A stretch of DNA of 64,000 nucleotides from an uncultured Eubacteriales bacterium (GTDB taxonomy: Bacteria; Acidobacteriota; Aminicenantia; Aminicenantales; Aminicenantaceae), in assembly GCA_964633715.1 (NCBI GenBank), contig CAZWHQ010000012.1, forward strand, positions 8,062 through 72,061, read 5' to 3'. Both the position numbers and the translations under genes were made by a program. Within the stretch, counting starts at the first letter, position 1; every line of letters starts with the position of its first letter. Under the pieces are notes generated by a model. The model saw nothing but the letters and a program-made list of their open reading frames with translations, had not been told where the DNA came from and made no database searches. Of this stretch, positions 1 through 48,499 are shown piece by piece.

Positions 1-611
1 AGCAGGTTTTCCGGAGAGAGGGGCTGGCCAAAAACCTCTTTCAACCTGGCATAGACTTCAGGAAAAAAATTGTTCACTCCGCTGGAATAATAGTGATCGA
101 GTTCTTCTTGAGTGGCGGTAAAAATTCCCCGTATCACAATTCCACTGACATTTTCAGGATAGGTCTCGGCATAGGCTAAGGCAAGTGTGGATCCCCAGGA
201 TCCTCCAAAAAGGATAATTTGTTTACACTCCATGTGCTTGCGCAGTGTTTCAATATCTTCGACAAGATCCCAGGTTGTGTTTTCCCGAAGCTCGAGAAAA
301 GGCTTTGACAGCCCGGTCCCCCTCTGATCATGGAGAATGATATGAAAAGCCTCTGGATTAAAAAACCGGCGGTAATAGGGAGAGATACGCGCCCCCGGTC
401 CCCCGTGCAGGACAAAAACAGGGATCCCTTCAGGATTCCCACAGGCCTCATAATAAATTTCATGTAGATCTGAAACTTGCAGAGTATCGGTGAGATAGGG
501 CTTTATGTTTGGCCAGAGCGCTGTTGTTTCCTCTGACACAGACTCAGAGCAGCCCGTCAAAATTAAGGGAATGGAAATTAAAACAAAAAACACGTGCAGA
601 TGTTTTTTCAT
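1..611 (-). CDS. pip: Proline iminopeptidase (S33 alpha/beta hydrolase), 5'-partial at window edge; lipoprotein-type signal
   Basis: Minus-strand translation from the ATG at 611 gives MKKHLHVFFVLISIPLILTGCSE...HGGPG...GGSWGSTLALAYA (nucleophile elbow GGSWG). The ORF runs off the left edge. The listed 176..463 ORF is a wrong frame of the same region. Confidence 0.8.
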   Translation of the reverse strand, partial: MKKHLHVFFVLISIPLILTGCSESVSEETTALWPNIKPYLTDTLQVSDLHEIYYEACGNPEGIPVFVLHGGPGARISPYYRRFFNPEAFHIILHDQRGTGLSKPFLELRENTTWDLVEDIETLRKHMECKQIILFGGSWGSTLALAYAETYPENVSGIVIRGIFTATQEELDHYYSSGVNNFFPEVYARLKEVFGQPLSPENL

Positions 612-660
612 TCTTTTTCTCCTGGAAAAACCGACAATCCCATTTTTATCCTTTTTGCTG

Positions 661-666
661 TATAAT
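661..666 (+). promoter_or_regulatory. Sigma70-like -10 hexamer TATAAT with adjacent TG, upstream of the M28-M19 gene
   Basis: gcTGTATAATgg lies about 50 nt upstream of the ATG at 715. The RBS AAGGGAG sits 8 nt before the start. Confidence 0.45.
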
Positions 667-714
667 GGCAAATTAAATCATATGATTTATCCAAATCACA
701 AAGGGAGTCTCTCA

Positions 715-3342
715 ATGAAAAAGATCTCTATCTCTATTGTTCTCTGTTTGCTTTTATTTGGATTGCCGGGGTATACCCAGGTCAAACCGGATGGACAAAA
801 AGCGATGGAACATCTCCGGTTTCTTGCATCAGATGTGATGAAAGGCCGAAAATCCACTACGCCGGAATACCAAAAAGCCGCTGAATATGTAGCAGAAAAG
901 ATGAGAGAGTATGCACTGGAGCCTGGCGGAGAGGCCGGCACTTACTTTCAGCAGGTCGAATTTAAGAATTGGAGAAACTTTACTCCACCAATCCGCCTGG
1001 ATATCCTTCATCCTACAACCATAAAATTATTTCCGGGACGAAATGCAGATTTTTCACCGATGAACAACACAGGTTCTGGAATAGTGAGAGGGCCTCTTGT
1101 TTTTGCCGGTTACGGCCTGGTTTCAGAAAAAAACAACTGGGATGACTACAAAGATCTCGATGTGCAGGGAAAAATTGTGCTTATTATCCCAGATGCACCT
1201 GAATTTTTGAAAGATCTTACGATTGAAGAAAAGTCAATAGAGACAAAGATTAAAACAGCCGTTAAAAAAGAAGCAAAGGGTGTCATCTTCATGAACATAG
1301 GGGCTAGGATTCGCAGTCCCAGGCAAAAACAGGACGATAATACAGAGACCTGGCCAGAGGACTTTCTGATCTTCTCAGCAAATACATCCGCACTCGACCG
1401 GTTTTTTTATTTGAATAATCTCAGCTGGCGCACAATGGTCAGCCACACTCTAAGAGAGAAAAAATCTTTTACTTCCGAACTGGACATAGAGGTCGAAATG
1501 GAAGCCCATTTCACCCTAGAGGACAGGACGGCTCCCAATGTCATCGGTATCCTTCCAGGACAACACCCAAAACTTAAGGACGAGTGTATTATTATCGGCG
1601 CCCATCTCGATCATCTGGGCATCAATATGGACGGCCTGATTTACAATGGAGCTGATGACAACGCCTCTGGTGTAGCCGTTATTTTGGAACTGGCTCGGGT
1701 GTTCAACCTGAATCATTTCAGCCCGGAAAGGACTCTTGTATTTGCAGCCTGGGCCGGTGAGGAACTCGGCCTTGTCGGATCGAGGTACTATACAGAGCAT
1801 CCCCTGTTCCCTCTAGAAAAGACCGCTGTTTATATGAACATGGACATGGTCGGCTGCGGGGATGAGGATCTGTTTGTGGGAGGCATGTGGGAATTTTCTG
1901 ACTTATATGACCTTATCAAACAAAACCTGACTGAAGATTTAAATTCAAAACTCCGCTACCGATTAAATTACCGGGGTTCAGACCACAGTTCCTTTATCGG
2001 AAAGGGCGTTACGTCTATCAGTCTAAGATCAGGTAATCCTCTCACACGCGAACTGGATGATGAACATCCTGAATACCACTACCCAGGAGATACTCCAGAC
2101 ATTATCCAGCCGGAACTCCTTCAATTGGCCACAGAGTACCACCAAGAAGTTATCTCCTTCCTGGCCAACACAAAAGACAATCTCTTCGATCCCATACACC
2201 ACACGAATTTTATTCATAAAGATTCAACTCTTGTCGATATGCACTGCGATACAATCGGAAGGTTTCTTGCTGGCCAGGATCTCACTTTGGATAACTCCCG
2301 GGGGCACATCGATATTCCAAAGCTCCAAAAGGGAGCTGTAGATTTGCAGGTTTTTGCATGTTATGTCGGCCCTCCACAAAATGAAGTGCAGAAGAACCAG
2401 GCGGCCAAACGCGCCTTTGATCAGATCGATGCCGTTTTTCAACTGGTCGAAGAAAATCCCGACGACCTTCTCCTGGTCCTTGACCCAACCGATCTCAGGC
2501 TGCTTCGCGGGACCAGAAAAACCGGCGTTTTAATTGGCATCGAGGGCGGATACGCGATCGAAAACGATCTTCGACTCCTGCGCAATTTCTACCGCAACGG
2601 CGTCAGGTTGATGACATTGACGCACTGGACACATACAGATTGGGCCGATGCATCGGGTGATCCAGAGACGACATACGGAGGGCTCACAGAGTTTGGCGAA
2701 AAAGTTGTGAAAGAAATGAATAAACTCGGCATGATTATCGATGTCTCCCATGCCCATGACGAAACCTTTTGGGATGTGATTGAACTCACAGACTCTCCTA
2801 TTGTCGCCTCTCATTCCTGCGCCCGCGCTCTTTCCGATCACCACCGGAACATGTCAGACGAGATGCTCAAAGCCCTGGCAAAAAATGGCGGTGTCATCGG
2901 CATCAACTTTTACCCCGGATTCCTTAACGCTGAAAACAGCGAAAAACTTGCAGATCTCAGAACTGAACTCTTAGAAAAACACGGTCTTCCTGAGGAATCC
3001 AGGGAATTCATCAAAGCCGATGCAGAGAAAAGAAAAAAATTCAACGCCGAATACAAGATTAAATCCGAAGAACTCAGGAAGATTCTTCCTCCAATTGATG
3101 TCAAAACAGTTGTGGACCATATCGATCACGTCGTCGAAGTTACAGGCAAGACAGATTATGTTGGATTGGGATCTGATTTTGACGGCATCGGGAGCACTCC
3201 TATGGGGCTGGAGAACGCGGGAAATATGGCGAATATCACAGCTGAACTCGTGAAACGAGGATACAAGGACACCGATATCAGAAAGATCCTCGGTGACAAT
3301 TTCTTGAGAGTTTTCCGGAGAGTGAGCAGCAAAAATAATTAA
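715..3342 (+). CDS. Fused secreted peptidase: N-terminal M28 aminopeptidase with PA domain and C-terminal M19 membrane-dipeptidase domain
   Basis: The start is moved to the ATG at 715 (MKKISISIVLCLLLFGLPGYTQ signal peptide, RBS). The ATG at 505 would overlap pip. M28 motifs are GADDNASGVAVILELARVF, EELGLVGS and HSSF. M19 motifs are VDMHCDT, GIEGG, HWTHTDWADASG, IIDVSHAHDETFWDVIE, SHSCARAL and GLGSDFDGIG. Confidence 0.8.
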   Translation: MKKISISIVLCLLLFGLPGYTQVKPDGQKAMEHLRFLASDVMKGRKSTTPEYQKAAEYVAEKMREYALEPGGEAGTYFQQVEFKNWRNFTPPIRLDILHPTTIKLFPGRNADFSPMNNTGSGIVRGPLVFAGYGLVSEKNNWDDYKDLDVQGKIVLIIPDAPEFLKDLTIEEKSIETKIKTAVKKEAKGVIFMNIGARIRSPRQKQDDNTETWPEDFLIFSANTSALDRFFYLNNLSWRTMVSHTLREKKSFTSELDIEVEMEAHFTLEDRTAPNVIGILPGQHPKLKDECIIIGAHLDHLGINMDGLIYNGADDNASGVAVILELARVFNLNHFSPERTLVFAAWAGEELGLVGSRYYTEHPLFPLEKTAVYMNMDMVGCGDEDLFVGGMWEFSDLYDLIKQNLTEDLNSKLRYRLNYRGSDHSSFIGKGVTSISLRSGNPLTRELDDEHPEYHYPGDTPDIIQPELLQLATEYHQEVISFLANTKDNLFDPIHHTNFIHKDSTLVDMHCDTIGRFLAGQDLTLDNSRGHIDIPKLQKGAVDLQVFACYVGPPQNEVQKNQAAKRAFDQIDAVFQLVEENPDDLLLVLDPTDLRLLRGTRKTGVLIGIEGGYAIENDLRLLRNFYRNGVRLMTLTHWTHTDWADASGDPETTYGGLTEFGEKVVKEMNKLGMIIDVSHAHDETFWDVIELTDSPIVASHSCARALSDHHRNMSDEMLKALAKNGGVIGINFYPGFLNAENSEKLADLRTELLEKHGLPEESREFIKADAEKRKKFNAEYKIKSEELRKILPPIDVKTVVDHIDHVVEVTGKTDYVGLGSDFDGIGSTPMGLENAGNMANITAELVKRGYKDTDIRKILGDNFLRVFRRVSSKNN

Positions 3343-3354
3343 CAAAAAAACCAC

Positions 3355-4719
3355 ATGAAAAACCAAACTGACGACAACGGCTTGAAGCGCAAATTGGGGC
3401 TGTTTCCTACGACCAATATCGTCGTAGCCAACATGATTGGCGCGGGCATCTTTACGACTTCAGGGCTGCTCATGATGGATTTACTCAATCCAGTTTTGAT
3501 GATTTCACTTTGGATTGTTGGAGGAATCATAGCCCTCTGCGGGGCATTGGCCTATGGTGAACTCGGCGCAGCCATCCCCCAAGCAGGCGGAGAATACACT
3601 TTTCTCTCAAAATTATACAATCCCATTCTTGGTTTTTTGAGTGGGTGGGTATCATTTTTTGTCGGCTTTTCGGCACCCATCGCAGCCTCGGCTATTGGAT
3701 TCACAGAATATTTCACCCGCGCATTTCCAGGATTCTTGAAGTTTGGTATTTTCGGCGAAACAGTGGAAACCTTAATCCTCAAAAAGTTTTATGCCATTCT
3801 TATCATCGTCATTTTTACCGTTATCCATATGAGAGGTCTGGAACTTGGAACCAAGGTTCAAAATTCTTTAACTGTTTTAAAAGTGGCCCTGATCGTGGGA
3901 CTGGTCTTTTTTGGTTTTTTGTTGGGGAATGGGGATATGAATCATTTCTCCCTCGGAAGTGTTTTTAATTTCGACTTTTCTGGCTGGAAAACGATCGGTC
4001 TCTCACTCATGTGGATTATGTTCGCCTACGCCGGATGGAATGCCTCCGCCTATATCGGCTCTGAAATTAAAAATCCTGCTAAAAATCTTCCACGATCGCT
4101 CCTGCTCGGAACCGGGATTGTCTTATTCCTCTATATCTGTCTCAACTTTTTCTATGTCTATGCCGTTCCCCCTGCCGATATGGGAGGTGTCATTTCGATC
4201 GGAGGGCTCGCAGTCGGCAATCTCTTCGGAAAATCCTTTGAAAGCCTGCTGTCGGTCTTGATTTCATTTGCTCTATTTTCGTCCTTAAGTGCCTTTATTA
4301 TTCTGGGCCCCCGCGTGTACTATTCAATGGCCAGGGACCGCGCTTTTTTCAAATTTGCAGGTGAAGTCCATCCCAAGTTTGGCGTTCCATCCAAATCGAT
4401 TTTACTGCAGGGAGGAATAGCGGTTGTGATGGTTCTCTTCGGTACCTTCGACCAGCTGCTCACCTATATGGGATTTTCTCTAGGAATTTTTCCGATTCTG
4501 GCTGTTCTTGGAGTATTTAAATTGAGACGGACCAACAAAAGTGTCACCAAACTCCCAGGATTTCCTGTCACCTCTCTGGTGTACATTGTTGCAGGTGTCT
4601 GCATTCTTGTTCTGGCCTATTTTGAACGCCCCATCGAATCATCGATCGCAATAGGAACGGTCCTGACTGGAATCCCAGCCTACTTCTTGTTTAAGAAGAC
4701 ATATAAAGACCAAGAGTAG
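3355..4719 (+). CDS. APC superfamily amino-acid permease
   Basis: 454 aa with 12 predicted TM segments. The N-terminus TTNIVVANMIGAGIFTTSGL is typical of the APC/LAT family. The start lies 13 nt after the upstream stop. Confidence 0.85.
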   Translation: MKNQTDDNGLKRKLGLFPTTNIVVANMIGAGIFTTSGLLMMDLLNPVLMISLWIVGGIIALCGALAYGELGAAIPQAGGEYTFLSKLYNPILGFLSGWVSFFVGFSAPIAASAIGFTEYFTRAFPGFLKFGIFGETVETLILKKFYAILIIVIFTVIHMRGLELGTKVQNSLTVLKVALIVGLVFFGFLLGNGDMNHFSLGSVFNFDFSGWKTIGLSLMWIMFAYAGWNASAYIGSEIKNPAKNLPRSLLLGTGIVLFLYICLNFFYVYAVPPADMGGVISIGGLAVGNLFGKSFESLLSVLISFALFSSLSAFIILGPRVYYSMARDRAFFKFAGEVHPKFGVPSKSILLQGGIAVVMVLFGTFDQLLTYMGFSLGIFPILAVLGVFKLRRTNKSVTKLPGFPVTSLVYIVAGVCILVLAYFERPIESSIAIGTVLTGIPAYFLFKKTYKDQE

Positions 4720-4720
4720 A

Positions 4721-4748
4721 TGAATTAGAGGTGAATTAGAGGGACATC
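4721..4748 (+). repeat. Tandem short repeat TGAATTAGAGG/TGAATTAGAGGGACATC (REP-like unit, copy A)
   Basis: It sits directly after the permease stop TAG. The same 17-mer recurs at 9560 and, inverted, at 26835. Its core AATT..GGGACA..TC resembles the 27-bp unit of the 26718-26830 palindrome. Confidence 0.7.
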
Positions 4749-6137
4749 AGATTCTCAAGTGAATCGATAGCTTCCTCATATTCTCCGACAATGGTGTAAA
4801 TCGACGCCAAGTTTAAAACATATCGAGGCCCATCAAAGGCATCTTTAGACAGGGGAAACATCTCGACAGAACGGAGCCCTTCCTGCACAGCCTCGTCCTT
4901 CCGGTCAAGATAGGCGTAAAGAAGACCAAAAGAGGAGCGAAACCGGGGATCCTGCGGATTCTTTTGAACCAAGTCCTCGATTATAAGAAGTGCCGTTTGG
5001 GCAAACTTCCGCATGTTTTGGATATCATTCATCAAATAATAGGTGGACGCCAGAGCCATGTCTGTGGGGATATAAAACGTGTTCCCCACAAACGCGTTAT
5101 AGGGCAGAGCCTCTAACCGTTCGATGACATCGTTATTTTTTTTTCAAGAAGTCCTTGAATGTACCAGGAGTAATCGGTCAACTGAAGATCGGGCAACTGG
5201 AGAAGGAGAGCAAGCGATGCATCCAAATCTCCTCTTGCCAGGATCGGAAGCCTTGTCTTCGCAAGAAGAGGAAAGAAATATTTCGGATCGATGGAGATCG
5301 CTCTATCAAACCAGATTTCTGCCTCGTCATATTGGCGCAAACACACATAACTCCGACCTATCTGGTAGGCCAGATCGGCATTCAAAGGGCTGAGTTTAAA
5401 AGAATCCTCAAGAATGGCCGTAGATTCATCCCACCGTCCCTGGCGGCGGAGGATATATCCTAAATAGGTATAGGGCAAATTCGGCCTGGCCTTATGCACC
5501 TCCTCAAAAATTTCAAGGGCACGATTTTAATCTTGAAATCCACGGTAGTAGTAAAATCCCAAAGCCAGTTTTGCATCGGGAAGATCGGGATCGATCTCAA
5601 GCGCCCTGTAATCCGCTTCCCTTGCCTTTTCCAGCCGCTCTTCAGTCCGGTCCACACCGTTAGAGTAGGCCCATTGGTGCGTGATGGAGAGAGTGACGTA
5701 GGCAAAGGAGAAATTGGGATCCAGATCGATAGCTTTGTTCAATAATTCTACTGTTTCATTATAATCGGCAAGATTGGACGTGTTCCAGGCATATCCGGCC
5801 AGCTGTCTTGCTTGGAGATAATAATCACAACGGCAGCGGCCAGAATTCCCCAGCGCTTCTGGAAAGAGATCGTTTGACTCTTTGTTGTTCCCTGGATTTC
5901 CGGAGCCTGGTATTCGACTATGGGCAAAAAATGTTCCAGAGATCTCAGCTCGGCCGCTAAAAGTCCGGGATTGTCAAACCGTTCTTCTTTTCTCTTTTTT
6001 AAGCACCTTAAGATCAGCTGGGCGACCTCATAGGGAATTTGAGAATTGAAACCACGAGGATCCGGAGGCACTTCAGTTTTTTGTTTCGAAGCAATTTCAG
6101 CCGCAGAATCTCCTATAAAGGGCTTTGTCCCTGTCAA
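4736..6137 (-). pseudogene. Decayed paralog of the TPR-sensor Ser/Thr kinases (kinase C-lobe tail + TM + TPR repeats), 5'-truncated and split into four frames
   Basis: ORFs 5748..6137, 5527..5742, 5113..5499 and 4736..5089 are collinear with the kinase tail, TM (WGILAAAVVIIIS) and TPR region of the 11350..14475 protein. The catalytic N-lobe is absent. The last codons MSL* are supplied by the repeat at 4732-4748. Confidence 0.7.
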
Positions 6138-6220
6138 ACTTAAGGCTTTTTGAGAGTTGACTTATTTCAATTTTTCTGCTTTAAATTGACGACATGGTCT
6201 GTCTAAATCAATCTGAGAGA

Positions 6221-9200
6221 ATGACAAATAAAAAGAGGTCTTTTTTCCCCGTCCACATGTTATTTTTGATTGCTGGAATTTTTCTGTTTTCCTTTTTCTG
6301 CTCTTTAAAAAATCAACCTCCATCCGCTTCTGAAAGACGTTGGTTTTTTGGATTTGACAAAGCCATTCGAGGGGAAACGATCTCTTATCATTCCCCCATT
6401 CCCGAGGCCAAAGCAGCATTAATCGTAAGATCTATTGATAAAGATCGCTTCATCGAGTGGACAACGGAACCCCTCCCGGAAATCATTACAGGAGATTCGA
6501 TTACGTTTGTTTGGTTGGCTGGAATTGATGTCAATACAGACAGCCATATCTATGATTTTTTTATAAACGAAAAAAAATGGTTCTCTTTTTCCAATCCAAT
6601 TGATCAAAAAAATGAAGACTGGCAGCTGAAGGGAAATCACGGTGTAAACCTGGAATATCACGTCACATCGATCGATAAATACAACGATTTTATGGGATTC
6701 ATGTTTCTTCATATCCCAAAATCCTTGTTTCCATCAGGACAATCCCTGCATCTCCGCGTCCAAGGAGAAAGCGCCAAAAGCCAGAGCTGGTTTATGATCT
6801 TCCAGTTTCAGGTCAAGCCTCAATTGACACTATTTAGTGAACAGGCCGTGCTCCGCAGGTCCGAAAAACCAAATCAAACAATACGGCTTGAAATCGTCCA
6901 TCTCGACAATCCTGCCCAAGCAACAGTGAGAGCGGGAGACCAGATTTTGGACTCTCCATTGAAACTGGGGCATAATGTTCTCCGTATAGGGATTCCTGCT
7001 GTGCACAGATCAAAATCTTTCACAGTGCAAGTGGATATTCCGGGAAATGACTCTTTAGTCGAACATATTTTCATTCATCCTGTAAGGCATAAGGACATCT
7101 ATCTTCTTCACCATTCCCACGTCGATATCGGATACACACATATTCAAGAAGAAGTGAAAAACATCCAAACCAAAAATCTCGAACTGGCCATCGATCTGGC
7201 CTCTCAAACACAGAGTTTTCCAAAGGAATCTCAATTTAAGTGGAATACAGAAGTGATGTGGCCCATAGATGTATTCAAAGATTATGCTTCGGCGGAGAGC
7301 CAGGACAATCTGATCTCTGCCGTTCAAAATGGATCTATAGGACTGGATGCCCTCTATGCCAACGTGCTGACCGGTTTGTGCCATCCTGAAGAGTTGATAC
7401 ACCTTTTGGATAGTGCACGATTTGCGGCCCAAAAATATGGTGTGAACGTCGACGCCGCCATGATTACTGATATTCCAGGATACACATGGGGACTCGTCCC
7501 GGTACTTGCGCAGAGCGGAATTAAATATCTCTCAATCGGGACGAACTCGAGCCACCGCATCGGCCACATCCTTTCCGAATGGGCGGACCGTCCCTTTTAC
7601 TGGATGTCCCCTTCCGGGCAAGAAAAAGTTCTTTGCTGGGTGCATGGAAAAGGATATTCCTGGTTCCATACAGGTCTTGGGTATTCCAGACTCGACAAAC
7701 GGCTTCAAGAAACTCCCATTTTTGAGTATTTATCCGAACTTGAAACCAATAACTACCCCTACGACATCATTGCAGTCCGCTATAACATCGGCTCGGACAA
7801 TGGCCCTCCGGATCCGGAGCTGTCAAATACGGTTAAAGCCTGGAACGAAAAATACATTTCTCCAAAAATGATCATTGCCACAACCAGCGAAATGTTCCAT
7901 GCTTTTGAGGATAAATACAGCAAAAAGCTTCCCGTTTTCAGGGGGGATTTTACAGGGTATTGGGAAGATGGAGCTGCCTCTTCGGCACGAGAGACAACAC
8001 TTACACGAAAGGCTGCCGAACGCCTCGTCCAAACAGAAATCCTGTGGTCTCTGCTCTCCCCGCACACCTTTCCTTCGGAAGTTGTGGAAGAGACATGGCA
8101 AAATATCCTCCTGTATGATGAGCACACATGGGGCTCATGGAACAGTATTAGCGCTCCGGACTCCGATTTCACTTTAAAACAGTGGGAGACAAAACAATCT
8201 TATGCTTTAAATGCCGATCGGCTCTCCAGACAATTGAAAAAGAATATTAGTGGAATCCCTGAAGACAGCTCGGACAAAATAGAATCCTTGGATGTATTCA
8301 ACACCACATCCTGGGAAAGGTCAGATATTGTTACAATCCCGGCCGATATTCCTGTGGAGGGAGATCGAGTGGTTGACGATGCCGGCCATCCCCTTCCATC
8401 CCAAAGGCTTTCCACCGGCGAATTGGCTGTTCTTTTAGAAGGGGTTCCTGCATTTGGAGCAAAAAGGGTGTTTTTCCAGGACCAAGCGGCCTACTCATGG
8501 GGACAAGCCCGAACGACAGGAACAGAACTCAGTAATGGATGGATTTCCCTTCAGATCGACAAGGCTTCAGGAGCTATCAAGGATTTTAGAACTAAAGATT
8601 TGGATACAAATCTGGCCGACAGACAAAACGGATCCGGTTTAAATGAATACCTCTATGTCGCTGGACGAAATCCAAAAAATCTCCTGAAGAACAAAAACGT
8701 TTCTCTCCAAATCAAAGACTCTGGTCCCCTTGTGGCCTCAATAACAATAGTCTCAGATGCTCCTGGATGCCGGTCCTTAGAACAGGAAATACGAGTTATT
8801 GCCGGTCTCAAACGTGTGGACATCCTTAACGTTATCGACAAACAGGACGTTCGCAAACCTGAGGGTGTTCATTTTGCTTTCCCGTTTTTTATCCCCGAGG
8901 GGCAGGTGCGTGTGGACATAGCCTGGGGGAACTACCGTCCGGAATACGACCAGCTGCCCGGCTCGAATAAAAACTATTTTAGTGTCCAACGCTGGGTGGA
9001 CATTTCCAATAAAAACTTCGGTATCACATGGATCAGCCCAGACACCCCCCTGATTGAAGTGGGAGAGATCGCATCCGATCCCACAGTGTTTGGATGGAAA
9101 ATAAGTGTGGATCCCACACAAACTATCTATTCCTATGTCATGAACAATTACTGGGAAACCAACTACAAGGCCTCACAGGAAGGCCCTGTAACATTCCGGT

Positions 9201-9562
9201 ATTCATTGACACCTCATTCCAACTTTGATCCCGTGGAAACGGAACGCTTTGCCATCGAACGTTGCCAACCTCTGATTGTTCTTCCTTCAGACAAAATAGT
9301 CCCTTCTTCATCTTTTCTCCAGCTGGATTCGTCAAATGTTTTAGTGACCTCGCTGAAACCCAGCAAAGACGGACAGGCCATCCTTTTAAGGCTTTATAAT
9401 CCCGGCGTAAGAACGGAAAGGTTACGGTTCATCTGGGGGAAGCAAAAACCCGAATCTCTTTATACAAGCAGCCCGTTTGAAGAAAAGGGAAAAAAAATCA
9501 CAGATACACTTCGTGTTCCAGCTTTTGGAATATTAACTCTCCGCGCCGAAAACTTTAAATGA
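6221..9562 (+). CDS. Secreted glycoside hydrolase, GH38 (alpha-mannosidase)-like catalytic domain with an extra N-terminal domain
   Basis: HHSHVDIGYTH resembles the GH38 HxHxDxGW metal-binding motif. It is a long 1110-aa ORF with an N-terminal hydrophobic signal. The start is chosen at ATG 6221 (ATG 6194 is the alternative). The stop TGA is part of the repeat at 9560. Confidence 0.55.
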   Translation: MTNKKRSFFPVHMLFLIAGIFLFSFFCSLKNQPPSASERRWFFGFDKAIRGETISYHSPIPEAKAALIVRSIDKDRFIEWTTEPLPEIITGDSITFVWLAGIDVNTDSHIYDFFINEKKWFSFSNPIDQKNEDWQLKGNHGVNLEYHVTSIDKYNDFMGFMFLHIPKSLFPSGQSLHLRVQGESAKSQSWFMIFQFQVKPQLTLFSEQAVLRRSEKPNQTIRLEIVHLDNPAQATVRAGDQILDSPLKLGHNVLRIGIPAVHRSKSFTVQVDIPGNDSLVEHIFIHPVRHKDIYLLHHSHVDIGYTHIQEEVKNIQTKNLELAIDLASQTQSFPKESQFKWNTEVMWPIDVFKDYASAESQDNLISAVQNGSIGLDALYANVLTGLCHPEELIHLLDSARFAAQKYGVNVDAAMITDIPGYTWGLVPVLAQSGIKYLSIGTNSSHRIGHILSEWADRPFYWMSPSGQEKVLCWVHGKGYSWFHTGLGYSRLDKRLQETPIFEYLSELETNNYPYDIIAVRYNIGSDNGPPDPELSNTVKAWNEKYISPKMIIATTSEMFHAFEDKYSKKLPVFRGDFTGYWEDGAASSARETTLTRKAAERLVQTEILWSLLSPHTFPSEVVEETWQNILLYDEHTWGSWNSISAPDSDFTLKQWETKQSYALNADRLSRQLKKNISGIPEDSSDKIESLDVFNTTSWERSDIVTIPADIPVEGDRVVDDAGHPLPSQRLSTGELAVLLEGVPAFGAKRVFFQDQAAYSWGQARTTGTELSNGWISLQIDKASGAIKDFRTKDLDTNLADRQNGSGLNEYLYVAGRNPKNLLKNKNVSLQIKDSGPLVASITIVSDAPGCRSLEQEIRVIAGLKRVDILNVIDKQDVRKPEGVHFAFPFFIPEGQVRVDIAWGNYRPEYDQLPGSNKNYFSVQRWVDISNKNFGITWISPDTPLIEVGEIASDPTVFGWKISVDPTQTIYSYVMNNYWETNYKASQEGPVTFRYSLTPHSNFDPVETERFAIERCQPLIVLPSDKIVPSSSFLQLDSSNVLVTSLKPSKDGQAILLRLYNPGVRTERLRFIWGKQKPESLYTSSPFEEKGKKITDTLRVPAFGILTLRAENFK

Positions 9563-11349: not shown

Positions 11350-14300
11350 TCATGGAACCTTCAATCCAGTCAGTCTCTTCTTCGCATCTTCAACATCGAG
11401 ACTACCAGGATCAGCATCTTTCCAGAGATCAAGGAATTTTTCGTAGTGTTCAATAGCTTTATCTATAAATCCTTTTTTCTCATACAATTTTGCTAATCTG
11501 AAGTGGTATTTTGGGTGAATAAGATATCGCTCTTCTGTATTTGGATCAAATGTAACTAACCGCTCATATTCCACAATGGCTTTTTCTATTTCTCCATTTT
11601 TCTGATACGCCCTAGCCAGGACATCCTTTATGAAGGGCACATTATGGGAGAGGATAAATTGTATTTGAGGAGGTCTTCCCAATTGCGATGCTTTCTCTAA
11701 AATGGCAACCGCTTGGTCAATCGAGCCTTCGGCAAGCAGTATCTCTCCTTGGAGTATGTCATAAGAGAATTTTGCCCTATTTTCATTTGAAGGATCTATT
11801 TCAGGTAGGAGCGACTTCATTTTGGCCAGTCTTGACTTTGCGGAATCGATTCGCCCTTGTTTCAAGTCTATTAATCCGAGATCGAAAGAGTAAAATGCTG
11901 TATTTCCTGGTTCAAATTGAGGCTCATATTCTAAGAAATAATCGAACCATTTTTTAAAGCTTTTCTGGCTAAGTTCAAGCTCGTCCAGTTCATAATAGAC
12001 AGATCCTTTCAGATTTTCAATCAGGGCAACAAACATCTCATTTCTGACCTCTTTGGCTAGGTCCAAAGCCATCTGAAATTCTAGAAGGGACTGTTTTAAG
12101 TTGCCAAGCCAGAAATGATAGAATCCTTTATATAAATATCCAAAGCTCTTTATCCAAGGAATTTGAAAAAAATTAATCTGCAGATCGAGCCATTTCATTG
12201 CTTCAGGATAATTCTCCTTTAATGCATAGATGTATCCGATGCTTAAGCGGGTTATGGGAAAATCCGGTTTAATTTCTAACGCCTCTTTATATTTCACAAT
12301 CGCCTCATCAAGCTTTCCCATCCTCAGATATACTTCGCCCAGGGAATCTATGGGATTGGCATTCCCAGGAGAGACAGTTACATACTTCTTAAAATATTCA
12401 ACTGCTGCCTCAAAATCGCCAATATTTGAATACGTGTAGGCAAGACTATTCATGGCCTCTCCATAGTTTGGATCAAGCTCCAGTGCCGACTGGAACACTT
12501 CTATGGCTTGGTTGAACATATTTAAGTCTTGATAAAATTTACCTAATTCGTAGTGAGCTCTCTTTTCTCCTGGGTATTTTGTCGCTATTTCTTTGAGAAA
12601 CTGAAGCTGCTTTTGTGGATTTTTCTCTACGTCTAATGCATACGATGCTTCGATATAAAGCCGTTCTTTATCGGAGGCATTCTCCGAATAAATTTTTGCC
12701 TTCTCTAAGGCTTCCTCATTCGATCTGGGGTCCGATATACTTCTATATACCTGTGCAAGGTAATAGTATGCCATAGCAAATGTAGAATCGTATTCTATGG
12801 CCTTCTCGAGGAATTGAACGGCCTCATTAAAATAGTATTCTTCAAATGCCTCTCTTCCTTTTAAAAAGTAGTTGTACGCTTCCATTGAAGACGAAGTCAA
12901 TCCGGAAATCTGTGTTTTTACTTCACCCATCTTCTGGCTAGAGCTTCCAATATTTTGGATGATTTTATTGCTGAGTTCATCGATTTGCGTTTTTAGAATG
13001 CTGTCAATGCCCTCGCCTCTTGAACTGGAACTCATCAAAAGGTTCTTTGTCTCCACATCTAATACCTTCACATCTGTGACAAACACATTACCGGCTTTGG
13101 TGTAGCTGCCCAGAACAATCGCAGCTATGCCATCTCTTTGACACAGTTCAAATCCGGAATCACTGTTTATAATCTCGACATCTTCTTTTCCTATTTGCTT
13201 AAGGAGATCTCGCATGCGCTCCCATGTTGTTACATGAAAATTCCCTGTCTGTTCAAGACTGGTTATCAGGAGATTGGGGATCGCTTTTTGTAAATAATCG
13301 TAGGTCTGGTCTCCGGTCTGATTTTCAAAGCTGATAACTGCGATGGAATTTTCAATTATTGGAGCAACTACAATTTTCTTTTTTGGAAGAAGCTTCAGCG
13401 TTAAAACGATGACAATAATGGAAGCAAGGACAATCAGGAAAGGAATTAGAGTTTTTTTCAGGCCAAAGGTCACAGTAATCTCTTTTGATGTTAGAGGCTT
13501 CTTATGCGGGATGGTTCTTCCGGTTGTTGGCAAGCCTTCCTCTATGCTTTTTATATCTTGAAGAACTTCATCTGCACTTTGAAATCTATTCTCTTTTGCT
13601 TTCTCCAAGCACTTTAGAATTACACGGCTGAAATCCTTTGGAATCTGAGGATTGAGTTCAATGGGATCTTTGGGCAGTTCTCCTTTGTGTTTCATGGCAA
13701 TGCTGAGTGGAGTATCTCCGTGGAAAGGAAGCTGCCCCGTCACCATCTCATACAGGATAACTCCCAATGAGTAGATATCAGAGCGAAAATCCACATCTTT
13801 GCCTTCGGCTTGTTCGGGACTCATATATTCAGGAGTTCCGATCATAATCCCGGATCCGGTGATACCTTTGCCTTTTACAGATCGAGCAATCCCGAAGTCC
13901 ATAATCCGGGCACTTCCATTATCATCGATCATGATGTTGTTCGGCTTGAGGTCTCGATGAACAATCCCAATTTTGTGAGCCTCAGATAAGCCCTTACATA
14001 TTTGTTTTCCTATCGAAAGAGCCCTGGACGTGCTCAGCGGTGCAGCCCTTCTGATGAAATTCTTCAAATCTCCACCGGAAACATATTCCATAGTAATATA
14101 ATATGTGTCTTTTTCCCTGTTCAGATCATACATCCGGCAGACATTTTTGTGGGAAATATCACGGGCTGTTTTAAGTTCATTTCTGAAACGCTCAATAGTA
14201 TTCTTATCCACTGCAATCTCAGGTAAAATAAGCTTAAGGGCAACTTTGGTGTTGATTTCTTTATCGAGCACTTTGTAGACTTTGCCCATTCCTCCTTTAC

Positions 14301-14475
14301 CCAATTCCTCAATAATCTGGTACCGTCCGGCAAAAGTAGAGCCTGTCGTGAGTTCTTGTTTGGGTGTTTCTAAAGTGACAGCATCTTTAAGATCAGGGAA
14401 GGGAGTCGCACACTTATTGCAGAATTTTGACTCGTTTGGATTTTCTGTTTGACACTTCGGGCATTCTATAGTCAT
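11350..14475 (-). CDS. Zinc-ribbon / Ser-Thr protein kinase / single TM / extracytoplasmic domain with C-terminal TPR repeats (kinase 1)
   Basis: N-terminal CPKCQTENP...CNKCATPF. Kinase motifs are GKGGMGKVYKV, HRDLKPNNIMID, DFGIAR and GTPEYMSPEQ. One TM (LIPFLIVLASIIVIVL). About 600 aa of TPR-rich sensor region. Confidence 0.9.
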   Translation of the reverse strand: MTIECPKCQTENPNESKFCNKCATPFPDLKDAVTLETPKQELTTGSTFAGRYQIIEELGKGGMGKVYKVLDKEINTKVALKLILPEIAVDKNTIERFRNELKTARDISHKNVCRMYDLNREKDTYYITMEYVSGGDLKNFIRRAAPLSTSRALSIGKQICKGLSEAHKIGIVHRDLKPNNIMIDDNGSARIMDFGIARSVKGKGITGSGIMIGTPEYMSPEQAEGKDVDFRSDIYSLGVILYEMVTGQLPFHGDTPLSIAMKHKGELPKDPIELNPQIPKDFSRVILKCLEKAKENRFQSADEVLQDIKSIEEGLPTTGRTIPHKKPLTSKEITVTFGLKKTLIPFLIVLASIIVIVLTLKLLPKKKIVVAPIIENSIAVISFENQTGDQTYDYLQKAIPNLLITSLEQTGNFHVTTWERMRDLLKQIGKEDVEIINSDSGFELCQRDGIAAIVLGSYTKAGNVFVTDVKVLDVETKNLLMSSSSRGEGIDSILKTQIDELSNKIIQNIGSSSQKMGEVKTQISGLTSSSMEAYNYFLKGREAFEEYYFNEAVQFLEKAIEYDSTFAMAYYYLAQVYRSISDPRSNEEALEKAKIYSENASDKERLYIEASYALDVEKNPQKQLQFLKEIATKYPGEKRAHYELGKFYQDLNMFNQAIEVFQSALELDPNYGEAMNSLAYTYSNIGDFEAAVEYFKKYVTVSPGNANPIDSLGEVYLRMGKLDEAIVKYKEALEIKPDFPITRLSIGYIYALKENYPEAMKWLDLQINFFQIPWIKSFGYLYKGFYHFWLGNLKQSLLEFQMALDLAKEVRNEMFVALIENLKGSVYYELDELELSQKSFKKWFDYFLEYEPQFEPGNTAFYSFDLGLIDLKQGRIDSAKSRLAKMKSLLPEIDPSNENRAKFSYDILQGEILLAEGSIDQAVAILEKASQLGRPPQIQFILSHNVPFIKDVLARAYQKNGEIEKAIVEYERLVTFDPNTEERYLIHPKYHFRLAKLYEKKGFIDKAIEHYEKFLDLWKDADPGSLDVEDAKKRLTGLKVP

Positions 14476-15720: not shown

Positions 15721-16935
15721 TTACACTATTAATCTCGGCATCAGCGGATTCAGCCATATCATCACTTTATAACTGGTAATTTCGGTCCATTCGGCTATGT
15801 CAACGGCAGTAATCTCCTCTTTTCCCTGAGTCCCCAGCAGGACAACTTCGTCTCCCATGGATACTCTGGAATCCGGTTTCAGCAGGACTTCCATATGGTT
15901 GGCAGACATATAAGCGACCACCGGACAGCGTTCACCATTGATCAGGACAAAGGTATTTCCCTGGGCGTTATAAGGGTACCCGTTGGAGTAACCAACCGGG
16001 ATAACGGCAATTTTCTCTTTAGTTTTGGCCACATAGGATTTGTTATACGAAACCTGATCTCCCGGGCGCAGGTTTCTGACCACCGCCACGCGGCTTTTAA
16101 GCTGTAAAACAGGCTTCAGTATTATTTCCTTAAATTTTTCCCTAACTTCCCGGGAAGGGTAATATCCGAATAAAAGCAGCCCGGGCCGGACCATATCCAG
16201 GTAAGACGACCTTTGAGAAAAGATTCCGGTAGAGCTCACGGCATGCTTTATTTCCAAAGAGATTCCCTCACTTTCCGCCTGCTGACAGAGGATTTGAAAG
16301 CGTTTGATCTGTACTTTATCCAACTCATCATCTTCACTCATTGCAGTGGAAATCCCTTTTATCCGAAGGCCTTTCCACCCAGCGACTTTCTTGATATAAG
16401 GCATAGCCTCGTAATAGGGGATTCCCATCCTGGCCATTCCCGTATCCACATGAATATGGACATCTGACCTTTTCCCTATCTTGAGTGCCGCGGCGTTCAG
16501 TTCCTGAGCCTTTCCGGTAAATATAGATTGAGATATGTTTTTCTTAATGAGAATCTCTGCAGCGTCCTCATGAAGCGGTCCGAAATTGTGAACAGGACAG
16601 GAAACACCTGCCTCTCTCAATTGGAGTGCTTCGGGGAGACTGACGACCATAAGAGCATCGACTTTTTGTTGATCCAAATAGCGGCCGACTTCCACCAGAC
16701 CATGGCCGTAGCCATTGCATTTAATAACACCCATGATGGGAACCTTGACGAATTTTCTTAACTGTTCCAGATTCCATCCCATATTCTCCAGCTTCAATTC
16801 GATCCAGACGTCATCATAAGAACTGTTCTGGTCTTTGCTTCCTAAAAGTGGTTTATCAAAGTCCATTCCGCCGGTCAGGTATGCAGCAGAGCTCACGCCG
16901 GCGAATGACAGGAAATCCCTTCTGTTTATTTTCAT
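15721..16935 (-). CDS. alr: Alanine racemase family (PLP) with twin-arginine (Tat) signal peptide; putative periplasmic broad-spectrum amino-acid racemase
   Basis: Start at ATG 16935 with a perfect GGAGG RBS. MKINRRDFLSFAGVSSAAYL is a Tat motif. VIKCNGYGHG contains the PLP-lysine motif. There is a C-terminal beta-domain. Confidence 0.8.
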   Translation of the reverse strand: MKINRRDFLSFAGVSSAAYLTGGMDFDKPLLGSKDQNSSYDDVWIELKLENMGWNLEQLRKFVKVPIMGVIKCNGYGHGLVEVGRYLDQQKVDALMVVSLPEALQLREAGVSCPVHNFGPLHEDAAEILIKKNISQSIFTGKAQELNAAALKIGKRSDVHIHVDTGMARMGIPYYEAMPYIKKVAGWKGLRIKGISTAMSEDDELDKVQIKRFQILCQQAESEGISLEIKHAVSSTGIFSQRSSYLDMVRPGLLLFGYYPSREVREKFKEIILKPVLQLKSRVAVVRNLRPGDQVSYNKSYVAKTKEKIAVIPVGYSNGYPYNAQGNTFVLINGERCPVVAYMSANHMEVLLKPDSRVSMGDEVVLLGTQGKEEITAVDIAEWTEITSYKVMIWLNPLMPRLIV

Positions 16936-16990
16936 TTTCCCTCCTCTACAAAAATAGACAAGCAGACCTATTAGACACAATCATACAATC

Positions 16991-22114: not shown

Positions 22115-25100
22115 TCATTCTTTCAACCCAGCCAGTCTCTGCTTCGCGTCATCGACTTCAGGGAGGCCGGGATCGGCGTCTTTCCAGAGGTCTAGGAATT
22201 TCTCGTAATTCTCGATGGCAATGGTTTTGTCGCCCTGTTGTTCGTGAATCTTACCGAGCATATAAAAAGCCTTAGCATAAATATTGCCCCAATAAAGCCT
22301 GCCCCATGTCAAGGAAATTATCGTTTCATAATTCTCTTGGGCATTCTCTAAGTCTCCCGCCTTAAAGTTGGCAAAAGCCAAGGAATCGTAAAATAAAGCA
22401 TCAAATGTAGAGTGACCAGATTTTTGAGAGGGTAAAACGGACAATGTTTTCTTAAAATATTCAACAGCAAGCGAATAGTTGTTTTTCTTTTGCTCTATTC
22501 CTCCTTGCAAATGATAATAAAATCTTATGATTTTTTTGTATATTCCATTCTCAATAAATTCTTTTAGTTCATCTGCTGTTTCCTGAGCTTTATCAATAGA
22601 ATTCATCCCAATGTAGGCAAGTCCCTTCTGCCAAAGAGCGACTCTTTGCCTAGAAAGGCTTTCCGTCTCCAAGGCAAAATCCAAATACTTCTCATTTTCT
22701 TTCAAAGCTGAGCTAAAATCTCCAATTGAAAGATAATGTTCGCACAAATAAAGATGAGTATAGGATTCAGCTGAAGCATTTGAAGCTTGAATCGATAACT
22801 CACGCCTCTTTTCAATTTGTTCTTTTGATTCTCTAAATTTCCCTTCAGCCCGATATAATAATGACAAGCGGAACATACTTCCCCTAACATAGCCTTCATT
22901 CGAAGTATCGGCAAGTTTTTGGAATTCTTTTTCTGCTTCTAAAAAATCTCCTTTCAACAAGTAAATATCTCCAAAATAATAATAAATCCCATGATAAGTT
23001 GGGTCGAGGGAAAAGGCTTTGTTTGCTTCATTCAATGCAAGGTCAAATTCTCCCTGAGAAGCATAAATAGTGGATATTCGTCTGCGAAGAAATGCAGAAT
23101 CGGAAAAGCTTTTGGTATAATCTTCAAGTATTTCTCTGGCTTTATCATAAAGTCCTTTAGCTTCATACATAATTGACATTCCATTGTAGGTAACAGTAGA
23201 AGAGACTTTTTGCTTCATGTTCGCTTCATATGGTTTGATAGCCTTATCCCATTCTTCTATTTGAGAATATACCCATGCCAGGTTACTATTCGCCATCCTA
23301 TCATCAGGATAGAGTTCTAGTAGTTTGATATAAGCTTCAATACTTTTATCAAAGGTCTTCTCTGAAACATTGTAGAAATCTCCTTCGATGATATACCGCT
23401 CTCGCTCCGATATACGTTCTCTCAGTTCAAAAGCTTTCTGGATATAAACTTTTTCTTTATCTAAATTACGAAGATTGTAGGAAGCTGCTGCCATACTTCT
23501 GTAGGCCATTGCAATTCCTGGATCAAGGTCGACAGCTTTCTCCATAATTGCTATGCTATTCTCCCATTCCCGATTGCGAAAAAATTCTCTACCCTTGCTG
23601 TAAAACTTAAAAGCTTCAGGTATTGCGGTTGTAATTTCCCTTAACTCTTTGTTGATATCCTCTGCTATTAGTCTTGGAGATAGATCCAGGTCTGACTTGA
23701 TCTGGTTTGACACCTCGTCTACTTTGGAAATGATCTCTTCTTCTCCAATACATTCAATACGCAAAGAGTTTATAACCTCACCTGTCTGCTGACTTTGAAG
23801 CGATAAAGTGATGATGATGTTTTGCCCGGGTTTCAAGATGCTTCCACTTAAAGTGTGGGAAGCTCTTCCTTCGCTTGCAACTTTTACGAGATCTTCTTTG
23901 GTATATTTTTTGCCCTCATCCAGATTGAGCTTCTTTAAGATACTGTAGACCGTGTTTCCGTCTAACACATTGATGTATTTTGATTGAGCAAGCTTTATGA
24001 TGAGCAGTTCAGTGAGTCCCATTTCCCAGGCATCCAGGCTGCTATCGCTTGAGAGATTATCAAAGTAGAGGATAGCAAGGGATGGTTTTTCTGTTAGAGA
24101 TGGAATGAATTCTTTCTTTGGGATAAACTGCAAGATCATGAATGTGATGACGGCCAGAGCAATGATTCCAATTGTGGGGATTAGGAGTTTTTTTACTTTG
24201 AACTTTACTGTTATCTCCTTTGAAGTTACCGACTTTTTTTTCGATACAATCCTGTCAGTAGTAGGAATTCCTTTCTCAATATTCTCTAATTCAGACCGTA
24301 ATTCTTCTGCACTCTGATAACGGTTTTCCCTATCTTTTTCTAGACATTTCAAAATCAACTGGTTGAAGTCGTCTGGGATTCGCTCATTAAAATTCTTGGG
24401 AGCTTTTGGAGTTTCAGTCCTTTGTTTGACTCCAACAGTAATAGCGGAATCCCCTTCAAAGGGCACCCTGTCTGTCAGCATTTTGTAGAGGATAATTCCT
24501 AGAGAATAAATATCCGATCTCTGATCGACATCTTTTCCTTCAACTTGCTCAGGTGACATATATTCTGGAGTACCGATTATGGCTCCAGATCCTGTAATGC
24601 TTTTTCCTTTGACAGCCCTGGCAATACCAAAGTCCATAATCCTTACGTTCCCGCCCCTGTCGATCATGATATTGTTGGGTTTAAGGTCTCTGTGGATTAT
24701 CCCAAGGCTGTGTGCTTCCTTGAGTCCAGCACAAATTTGCTTGGCAATTGAAACGGCTTTTCCAACCGTAAGTTGTCCTGTCTGGCGAATCAATCCTTTT
24801 AAATCCTGTCCAGAGATGTATTCCATGGTGATGTAGTGGAGGTTCTTCTCTTCCCCCAAATCAAACATCGCACAGACATTCTTGTGCCTTATCTTTCGTG
24901 CAAACTTAAGTTCATTCCTGAATCGTTCAATAGTTTTTTTATCTGCTGCAATTTCAGGTTTGATGAGCTTTAAAGCAACTTCTTCTTTGACCTTAGTATC
25001 TTCTACTCTATAAACTTTACCCATCCCTCCTTTACCCAGTTCTTCGATAATTTCGTACCTGTCAACGAAAGTACTTCCGCGAGTTAATGCTTCCGTAGAA

Positions 25101-25219
25101 GTTTCATATGTTTTGGTGAGGACTCCCTCTCTTGCATCAGGAAGAGGAGTGTCACACTCACCACAGAATTTCTGAGAATCAGGATTATCTGTGTGACACT
25201 TAGGGCATGTTGTGCTCAT
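22115..25219 (-). CDS. Zinc-ribbon / Ser-Thr protein kinase / TM / TPR-repeat sensor (kinase 2), paralog of kinase 1
   Basis: CPKCHTDNP...CGEC. Kinase motifs GKGGMGKVYRV, HRDLKPNNIMID, DFGIAR and GTPEYMSPEQ. A TM segment and a long TPR region. The C-terminus DLWKDADPG..DAKQRLAGLKE parallels kinase 1. Confidence 0.9.
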   Translation of the reverse strand: MSTTCPKCHTDNPDSQKFCGECDTPLPDAREGVLTKTYETSTEALTRGSTFVDRYEIIEELGKGGMGKVYRVEDTKVKEEVALKLIKPEIAADKKTIERFRNELKFARKIRHKNVCAMFDLGEEKNLHYITMEYISGQDLKGLIRQTGQLTVGKAVSIAKQICAGLKEAHSLGIIHRDLKPNNIMIDRGGNVRIMDFGIARAVKGKSITGSGAIIGTPEYMSPEQVEGKDVDQRSDIYSLGIILYKMLTDRVPFEGDSAITVGVKQRTETPKAPKNFNERIPDDFNQLILKCLEKDRENRYQSAEELRSELENIEKGIPTTDRIVSKKKSVTSKEITVKFKVKKLLIPTIGIIALAVITFMILQFIPKKEFIPSLTEKPSLAILYFDNLSSDSSLDAWEMGLTELLIIKLAQSKYINVLDGNTVYSILKKLNLDEGKKYTKEDLVKVASEGRASHTLSGSILKPGQNIIITLSLQSQQTGEVINSLRIECIGEEEIISKVDEVSNQIKSDLDLSPRLIAEDINKELREITTAIPEAFKFYSKGREFFRNREWENSIAIMEKAVDLDPGIAMAYRSMAAASYNLRNLDKEKVYIQKAFELRERISERERYIIEGDFYNVSEKTFDKSIEAYIKLLELYPDDRMANSNLAWVYSQIEEWDKAIKPYEANMKQKVSSTVTYNGMSIMYEAKGLYDKAREILEDYTKSFSDSAFLRRRISTIYASQGEFDLALNEANKAFSLDPTYHGIYYYFGDIYLLKGDFLEAEKEFQKLADTSNEGYVRGSMFRLSLLYRAEGKFRESKEQIEKRRELSIQASNASAESYTHLYLCEHYLSIGDFSSALKENEKYLDFALETESLSRQRVALWQKGLAYIGMNSIDKAQETADELKEFIENGIYKKIIRFYYHLQGGIEQKKNNYSLAVEYFKKTLSVLPSQKSGHSTFDALFYDSLAFANFKAGDLENAQENYETIISLTWGRLYWGNIYAKAFYMLGKIHEQQGDKTIAIENYEKFLDLWKDADPGLPEVDDAKQRLAGLKE

Positions 25220-41573: not shown

Positions 41574-41806
41574 TTTTACATAAGGCCAGTCCTGTTTAAG
41601 ATCATTTCATTTTAAAGAATTCTGAAACTTAAATAAAGACACGTCTTTTGGAAAGCATCCCATTTCCCGCGATTTCAAGAAAGAATTCTCCGCAAAGTGA
41701 TAAGAAATCACGAAAATGAGGAAACTTCCCAATTGAGTTGGCTTGACTTTTTGAGAAGGTGGTGGTAATTCAGATTCTTTAAAAGATCGGATATTTGGAG
41801 GAATAA

Positions 41807-43474: not shown

Positions 43475-43483
43475 ATAATAAGA

Positions 43484-43729
43484 TTGTTTCAAAAAATATT
43501 TTTCGAAAACTCATCCGGGATCAAACTGTGTGGAATTCTCTCCACACCCTCTTCTGAAAAACAAGAGACGATTTTTTTACTTTGCCACGGTTTTTCAACA
43601 AGCAAGGATGGCCGAACCAACACCCGGCTTGAAAAGACTCTCAATGACGGCGGGCTGGCCACTTTTCGCTTCGATTTTTTTGGACATGGAGAGTGCGGAC
43701 CATATCTAATCTCAGCCCAGAGATTTTGA
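43484..43729 (+). pseudogene. N-terminal fragment of an alpha/beta hydrolase (dienelactone-hydrolase/BAAT-like), truncated before the catalytic serine
   Basis: …FLLCHGFSTSKDG…FDFFGHGEC then a stop. Only 81 aa. Confidence 0.5.
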
Positions 43730-43788
43730 TAAAATGATCCGCCTGATTTCTGATTTTGTTTTGACCCACTCAAAAGATCGGATAATTT

Positions 43789-45630: not shown

Positions 45631-45674
45631 AGAATCCCTCCTCTCCACAAGTGATAAAAATCTCTGTATGCTAG

Positions 45675-45708
45675 AGCTTATATCACAGGAAAAAAATGGA
45701 TGTCAAAG
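45675..45708 (-). promoter_or_regulatory. Conserved sigma70-like promoter element (copy 2) upstream of the M14 gene
   Basis: The coding strand reads TTGACATCCATTTTTTTCCTGTGATATAAGC, with -35 TTGACA and an extended -10 TGaTATAAG. Confidence 0.5.
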
Positions 45709-45770
45709 AAAAGCCGGGAATTGAAATGTTTAGGCAGGAACGGACAGAAATGCCCAAAGAAGAAAACCAA

Positions 45771-48497: not shown

Positions 48498-48499
48498 AA

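Follow-up and report, generated by a model that had tools for sequence, protein, structure and literature searches.

Dipeptidases of the M19 family (MEROPS M19, PF01244), such as Sco3058 of Streptomyces coelicolor and human DPEP1, are stand-alone enzymes of about 370–400 aa, DPEP1 being anchored by glycosylphosphatidylinositol (GPI). The zinc ligands of human renal dipeptidase are His20, Asp22, Glu125, His198, and His219; Arg230, which binds the substrate carboxylate, and Asp288, in the catalytic site, are its cilastatin- and substrate-binding residues (PMC9305348). M28 aminopeptidases with an inserted PA domain, including BSAP/YwaD (6hc6), the Aneurinibacillus AM-1 enzyme (2ek8), Pseudomonas PaAP (8ac9), and Legionella LapA (5gne), contain no second peptidase domain. 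Here, we analyzed a 64,000-nucleotide stretch of contig CAZWHQ010000012.1 (hereafter the window) from an uncultured bacterium of the Aminicenantaceae. It carries a gene in which a PA-M28 aminopeptidase module and an M19 dipeptidase module are joined in one 875-aa polypeptide that is predicted to be exported. Aminicenantes are abundant, uncultured bacteria of sediments and the subsurface, and their name refers to predicted amino acid consumption. The fusion proved to be a widespread, previously undescribed domain architecture that combines two familiar peptidase families and is conserved in this uncultured clade.

Results and Discussion

Domain Architecture and Structure Model

The uninterrupted reading frame extends from 505 to 3342 (+), and the start was assigned to the ATG at 715, the methionine from which homologues align. 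Because homologues begin at this ATG and a Shine-Dalgarno-like sequence lies upstream, the protein is 875 aa long, and NCBI contains a protein (P0001) that is 100% identical to it. An earlier interpretation made from the letters alone, the sequence-only reading, had described an 875-aa protein at these positions comprising a PA-domain M28 aminopeptidase and a complete M19 dipeptidase. A Pfam domain search confirmed this composition (PF04389, PF02225, and PF01244). The M28 match covers profile positions 1–187 of 193 (138.2 bits against a cut-off of 21.3), and the M19 match is nearly full length, covering positions 2–318 of 319 (356.9 bits against a cut-off of 26). The PA-domain match barely exceeds its cut-off (25 vs 23.9 bits). 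The zinc-ligand motifs that the sequence-only reading had quoted are also present, as GADDNASG (residues 312–319), EELG (349–352), and (D)HSSF (423–427). No NCBIfam model reaches its cut-off on the fusion protein. In two alignments, the modules of every homologue join without a gap or a shift of frame.

An AlphaFold2 model of all 875 residues, built from a 53-sequence alignment, had a mean predicted local distance difference test score (pLDDT) of 88.9 and a predicted template modeling score (pTM) of 0.80, so that a two-module fold is predicted with confidence. In Foldseek searches, the N-terminal half matched 2ek8, 6hc6, and 8ac9 with a probability of 1.00, all sharing the M28 alpha/beta fold with a PA insertion. 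The C-terminal half matched 3s2j, 3id7, 1itq, and 5lwz with target-normalized template modeling (TM) scores of 0.82–0.85 and root-mean-square deviations of 2.0–2.9 Å. The proteins matched at 0.82–0.85 were Sco3058, DPEP1, DPEP3, and GliJ, and 3s2j scored 0.85. By sequence, the best solved relative of the C-terminal half is likewise Sco3058 (3id7, E 4.4e-58). The closest solved relatives of both halves are true enzymes (Sco3058 and DPEP1; LapA, BSAP/YwaD, the AM-1 aminopeptidase, and PaAP). No solved chain spans both halves in the Foldseek search (best query-normalized TM score 0.39), and the sequence search agrees.

The M19 domain contains a helical insertion of about 55 residues, which is absent from 830-aa members of the family (P0011 and P0082) and from human DPEP1. 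Sequence matches of the fusion to DPEP1 split at this insertion. Within the M28 half, residues 441–455 (2035..2079) include an 8-residue insertion (GNxLTRELDD) that is specific to the family with an active M19 domain and precedes an invariant DEHPEYH. Despite its strong conservation, this segment is the one internal stretch of the model whose pLDDT falls below 50. A role as an interdomain or substrate-gating loop is possible. At the N-terminus, Gln22 (778..780) directly follows the hydrophobic stretch (..AQ|VKPDG) and is nearly invariant in the family; signal-peptide cleavage presumably occurs before this residue. The position recalls the Q-rule, by which signal-peptidase-I substrates of Bacteroidetes carry an N-terminal Gln or pyroglutamate.

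Active-Site Residues

Conservation was assessed in a main alignment of 118 full-length family members with 55–86% identity and in smaller alignments of 53 and 15 sequences. In the M28 half, H297, D299, E349, E350, D377, and H424 are invariant in all 118 sequences. The basis for D315 is the pair of alignments with 53 and 15 sequences, in both of which it is invariant. Across both fusion families described below, D315 is conserved, whereas its neighbor D314 varies in the sister family; the bridging aspartate is therefore probably D315. The standard M28 motif pattern was used to assign roles, and we take H297, D315, E349/E350, D377, and H424 to supply the zinc ligands and, within the EE pair, the general-base glutamate.

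The M19 half is equally well preserved. All 118 sequences, without exception, have H510, D512, E610, H679, and H700, the counterparts of His20, Asp22, Glu125, His198, and His219 in the human renal enzyme, and the same holds for H637, R711, and D821/D823. Because the alignments to Sco3058 and DPEP1 cover the query only from residue 518 onward, H510 and D512 were placed by the conserved H-x-D motif in the first barrel strand. R711 aligns with the arginine of the PRN motif of Sco3058, and D821/D823 lie within the GSDFDG/GGDYDG motif; R711 and the D821 region correspond to Arg230 and Asp288 of the human enzyme. Judged by these residues, both active sites are intact and both halves are apparently active. 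The invariance of every M19 ligand and substrate-binding residue indicates selection for catalysis.

Distribution and Origin of the Fusion

The architecture was traced in a search of 5.8 billion proteins and in a genome scan covering one genome per GTDB species. At least 120 protein clusters share it at 60–100% identity and at least 85% coverage, all with precomputed PF04389 and PF01244 assignments, and 203 encoding stretches were found among the GTDB species representatives. Taxonomic labels and locus inspection rest on 80 listed stretches out of these 203. Almost all of the 80 are labeled Aminicenantes, Aminicenantales, or Aminicenantia; a few are labeled KSB1, Acidobacteria, Terriglobia, or Desulfaltia, and many carry the uninformative label "uncultured". 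By tblastn, the two halves are contiguous and in a single frame in 80/80 inspected loci. Clustering at 50% identity collapsed the whole family into one full-length representative (P0121), and the family was monophyletic in a neighbor-joining (NJ) tree of M28 modules (100/100 bootstraps).

The suggestion that the fusion is a lineage-specific invention is thus not borne out, because the architecture is common and automatically annotated in related genomes. Its specificity is at most that of a clade at class or phylum level, and the fusion is an ancient trait shared across Aminicenantes rather than a recent local event. Automatic names include "M20/M25/M40 family metallo-hydrolase" (NCBI) and "membrane dipeptidase" (IMG). 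This annotation is generic rather than curated, and bifunctionality is unrecognized in it. Full-text literature searches for an M28-M19 fusion found no description.

A Sister Family with a Degenerate M19 Domain

A second large family of about 765–810 aa has the same signal peptide, PA-M28 half, domain order, and junction. Among the matches listed, more than 120 clusters belong to it; their sources are Aminicenantes (with one 4.35-Mb contig), Acidobacteriota, KSB1, and unclassified bacteria. Its C-terminal domain is about 90 residues shorter than the M19 half, to which it shows homology along its entire length (hhalign 99.7% probability, E 7e-26), and many members still exceed the Pfam M19 threshold. 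Overall identity between the two families is 27–32%. Across 125 sister sequences, the M28 ligands are intact, and the positions of H510, D512, E610, H679, H700, and R711 and the D821/D823 (DFDG) segment are all lost. Because every zinc ligand is lost, this domain cannot be a metallo-dipeptidase, and from its sequence it looks like a pseudo-dipeptidase. Aminicenantes as a group thus carry fusions with both active and dead M19 domains.

Since the junction is shared, one fusion event for the active and dead families is likely. The NJ tree of M28 modules did not clearly place the active family relative to the sister family and the giant multi-M28 proteins described below, and some sequences classed there as "other" are themselves fusion-type proteins of about 770 aa. 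We tentatively offer a scenario that we consider possible, without giving it even odds. A single ancient M28-M19 fusion would have diversified across Aminicenantes, Acidobacteriota, and KSB1, and most lineages would then have lost the M19 metal site, turning the barrel into a non-hydrolytic peptide-binding or dimerization module of the M28 enzyme. The window protein would be a catalytically complete survivor. If this is true, the dead barrel would resemble a fused counterpart of PvdM, a non-hydrolytic M19 homologue, or of the third domain of glutamate carboxypeptidase II (GCPII). In that case, the ancestral two-step exopeptidase would be preserved in the Aminicenantes form, and dipeptides might pass directly from one site to the other.

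Proposed Function and Alternatives

We propose that the fusion protein is an exported bifunctional exopeptidase whose M28 and M19 sites together turn peptides fully into free amino acids outside the cytoplasm, a reading we judge probable rather than firm. The signal peptide would carry the protein across the cytoplasmic membrane, giving it a periplasmic or extracellular location. There, the PA-domain M28 module would trim oligopeptides from the N-terminus as a co-catalytic di-zinc aminopeptidase, and the M19 module would act as a binuclear-zinc TIM-barrel dipeptidase that splits dipeptides with a free C-terminal carboxylate. The two sites could act in sequence on one peptide, and a coupling of N-terminal trimming to dipeptide hydrolysis is plausible. 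The released amino acids would enter through available permeases; in the window organism and its closest relative, an APC-superfamily permease gene follows the fusion gene by 12 nt.

Several observations weigh against this proposal. When the three open reading frames (ORFs) on each side of the fusion were clustered across the 80 loci, no functional partner was conserved, and the recurrent neighbors were housekeeping genes. As the synteny with a transporter and a second peptidase is not conserved, genomic context gives a dedicated pathway no support. Bacterial M19 enzymes profiled by Cummings and co-workers in 2010, Sco3058 and relatives among them, reportedly prefer L-Xaa-D-Xaa dipeptides, so that the M19 half may act on substrates that the M28 half does not make. 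In addition, the catalytically dead C-terminal domain of the sister family implies that the M19 barrel also has some non-catalytic role.

The main rival takes up the substrate preference and holds that the two activities are independent. The M28 half would scavenge L-peptides, and the M19 half would be specialized for L-Xaa-D-Xaa or unusual dipeptides, for example, from peptidoglycan or necromass fragments, Cys-Gly conjugates, or beta-lactam-like amides. No intermediates would be handed over, and the fusion would merely secure co-export and a 1:1 stoichiometry. In keeping with this, Sco3058, the best solved relative, was crystallized with phosphinate mimics of L-Xaa-D-Xaa dipeptides (3s2j, L-Leu-D-Ala), and R711, which binds the carboxylate, is conserved together with the D821/D823 region. 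The window also encodes an alanine racemase and a beta-lactamase-fold/DUF3471 protein, which fit a diet of cell-wall peptides only loosely. The sequence, however, does not discriminate L-L from L-D specificity, no neighborhood with cell-wall recycling genes is conserved in the 80 loci, and retention of the fusion in more than 200 species suggests a functional benefit of proximity. We consider independent activities rather unlikely. A different possibility is that the barrel serves mainly as a structural, dimerization, or peptide-binding module for the M28 enzyme, as in PvdM or the C-terminal domain of GCPII and the transferrin receptor, with catalysis dispensable. PvdM supplies a precedent, being non-hydrolytic with its peptide-binding site kept. 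The sister family, whose 125 sequences keep the M28 ligands and the barrel at the same junction without the M19 zinc ligands, and the hhalign match between active and dead C-terminal domains point the same way. This explanation fits the sister family but not the window family, in which all M19 ligand and substrate-binding residues are kept in 118 of 118 members, and for the window protein we regard it as improbable. Merging of two genes by a frameshift or a chimeric contig was considered solely because the source is a metagenome-type assembly. Many studies have independently assembled the same ORF and junction, without a stop codon or frame change, in some cases on multi-megabase contigs and on the 4.4-Mb chromosome CP070825; so many independent assemblies exclude an artefact, to which we assign a negligible chance. 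The exported two-step exopeptidase is the best-supported interpretation.

Genomic Context and Other Relatives

The coordinates of the fusion gene, its parts, and its neighbors are given in Table 1. The sequence-only reading had placed the gene in a compact peptide-scavenging locus, flanked by a lipoprotein proline iminopeptidase and an APC permease. Both flanking genes were confirmed by profile matches. The prolyl aminopeptidase fragment begins MKKHLHVFFVLISIPLILTGC and contains the lipobox LTGC and the nucleophile motif GGSWGS; it matches TIGR01249 with 204.8 bits over model positions 2–159 of 307 and also matches Abhydrolase_1 (S33). The best NCBIfam matches of the permease are amino acid transporter subfamilies, all below their cut-offs, and the permease is probably co-transcribed with the fusion in the window lineage only. 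The idea of a dedicated locus did not extend beyond this lineage. Among the 80 loci, the order prolyl aminopeptidase, fusion, and APC permease recurs only in L001, the nearest relative (83% identity), with housekeeping neighbors elsewhere. In L013 and L020, an APC homologue instead lies a few kilobases upstream of the fusion. The commonest downstream neighbor is a PcnB/CCA-type nucleotidyltransferase, immediately 3′ in 24/80 loci, and the commonest upstream neighbor is an RluA-type pseudouridine synthase, in about 25 of 80 loci and in two clusters. Conserved synteny was consequently rejected as functional evidence, only housekeeping neighbors being common. A promoter and terminator scan found no more sites than in shuffled sequence.

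Table 1. Features of the Fusion Gene, Its Surroundings, and Related Proteins (Window Coordinates)
Feature	Position	Strand	Remarks
Fusion gene	715..3342	+	stop codon included; 875-aa PA-M28 aminopeptidase + M19 dipeptidase, predicted exported
Shine-Dalgarno-like AAGGGAG	701..707	+	7 nt 5′ of ATG at 715; read off the sequence
Predicted signal peptide, residues 1–21, MKKISISIVLCLLLFGLPGYT	715..777	+	N-terminal helix 2–15 in model; pattern kept in homologues
PA domain inserted in M28 fold, residues 124–204	1084..1326	+	PF02225; Foldseek 2ek8, 6hc6, 8ac9
M28 catalytic core, residues 275–474	1537..2136	+	PF04389, E 3.5e-40; H297, D315, E349/E350, D377, H424
Junction, last M28 helix to first M19 barrel strand, residues 486–499	2170..2211	+	
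M19 (renal-dipeptidase-type) TIM-barrel, residues 500–868	2212..3318	+	PF01244, E 1.2e-106
Helical insertion in M19 domain, ~55 residues (~739–795)	2929..3099	+	helices 739–790 in model
Lipoprotein prolyl aminopeptidase (S33), 5′ part	1..611	-	start codon 611..609; runs off window start; divergent to fusion
APC-superfamily amino acid permease	3355..4719	+	AA_permease_2, 197.8 bits; 12 nt after fusion stop codon
Sister-family members	outside window		P0124, P0140, P0152, P0156, P0168, P0176, P0178, P0193, P0214, P0284-P0400
Sister-family examples			P0124; P0152 = MDZ7339453.1 (KSB1); P0168 = MEW6457122.1; P0365 (Aminicenantes chromosome)
Multi-module relatives (giant M28 proteins, other M19 fusions)			P0132, P0144, P0147, P0129, P0128, P0141, P0216, P0187

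Directly after the permease, 4736..6137 (-) holds three short broken ORFs from a Ser/Thr kinase-TPR gene related to intact genes for proteins of about 1040 aa at 11350..14475 and 22115..25219. Kinase residues ~244–360 are in another frame than the TPR part, and nothing is left of the first ~243 residues. This remnant is probably a pseudogene. The window is rich in exported hydrolases (40674..50188, 6194..9562, 15721..16980, and 52554..54152). They comprise an alpha/beta hydrolase, a PA-M28 peptidase, an M14 carboxypeptidase (43789..45648, -), an M28-like protein, the beta-lactamase-fold/DUF3471 protein, a GH38 alpha-mannosidase-like protein, and a sulfatase. The alanine racemase mentioned above is also encoded in the window.

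A second M28 gene at 41807..43474 had been taken for a stand-alone paralog of the M28 half. It does encode a PA/M28 protein, but the alignment of this protein to the M28 half contains many gaps and shows just 26% identity, and the protein lies outside all relatives in the M28 tree, where it was used as the outgroup. On these grounds, it was rejected as a paralog, donor, or recent duplicate; the two share a broad family, but the fused module did not arise from this protein. The 731-aa M28-like protein at 46302..48497 (+) matches only positions 1–114 of 193 of PF04389 and has no NCBIfam match. In it, SGHLYEGY replaces the HxDH motif and WPNEISG replaces GEExG, and it is possibly a non-catalytic M28 relative. 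With about 150 similar residues, no M19-like C-terminal domain, and degenerate motifs, it was rejected as a member of the sister family.

M19 enzymes are usually stand-alone, as the sequence-only reading had noted, and the nearest free-standing relative of the C-terminal half is a secreted 404-aa M19 protein (P0123, 60% identity). No M28 gene adjoins P0123 in its locus (L081). Its gene, at 5001..6215 of L081, lies between rpmH-rnpA-yidC-mnmE-mnmG and dnaN-recF-gyrB-gyrA, the usual place of dnaA. The M28 clade that contains the fusion is prone to fusion. Pfam scans revealed giant proteins of 1,500–2,100 aa with two such M28 modules plus Peptidase_MA_2 or DUF418, and other M19 fusions in the form of M19-M19 tandems, TPR-M19, and GT4 (glycosyltransferase-4)-M19 proteins.

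Conclusions

Both catalytic families are well known and the fusion occurs in hundreds of database entries, so no general concept is changed and the interest of the architecture itself is modest. A conserved exported aminopeptidase-dipeptidase could nevertheless mark how Aminicenantes finish the degradation of protein or necromass outside the cell. The fusion also offers a simple model for whether fused exopeptidases pass intermediates between their sites. The most interesting lead is the pair of families with active and dead M19 domains, a natural experiment in the change from an enzyme domain to a pseudoenzyme.

The C-terminal 370 residues of the fusion hold a whole TIM-barrel with about 30–33% identity to Sco3058 and DPEP1, including the full H-x-D/E/H/H binuclear zinc set and the carboxylate-binding arginine. 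Unlike in those enzymes, the barrel is the C-terminal half of a longer protein and carries the helical insertion. Its N-terminal 495 residues share the M28 fold, the inserted PA domain, and the H/D/E-E/D/H co-catalytic zinc motif set with BSAP/YwaD, the AM-1 aminopeptidase, PaAP, and LapA, at 19–23% identity in structural alignments. GCPII and the transferrin receptor (M28B) likewise have an M28 domain, an inserted (apical) PA domain, and a third C-terminal domain. In these proteins, however, the third domain is a helical dimerization bundle and not a TIM-barrel peptidase, and their Foldseek TM scores against the fusion are 0.37–0.39. PvdM of fluorescent pseudomonads is a periplasmic, non-hydrolytic M19 homologue with its peptide-binding site kept (PMC9305348). 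Its structure (3b40) shares the M19 barrel with the model of the fusion (TM score 0.79). Only one of the five zinc ligands remains in PvdM, whereas the fusion has all five and is therefore not of the PvdM type. The analogy applies instead to the sister family, which resembles PvdM in having kept the barrel and lost the zinc ligands.

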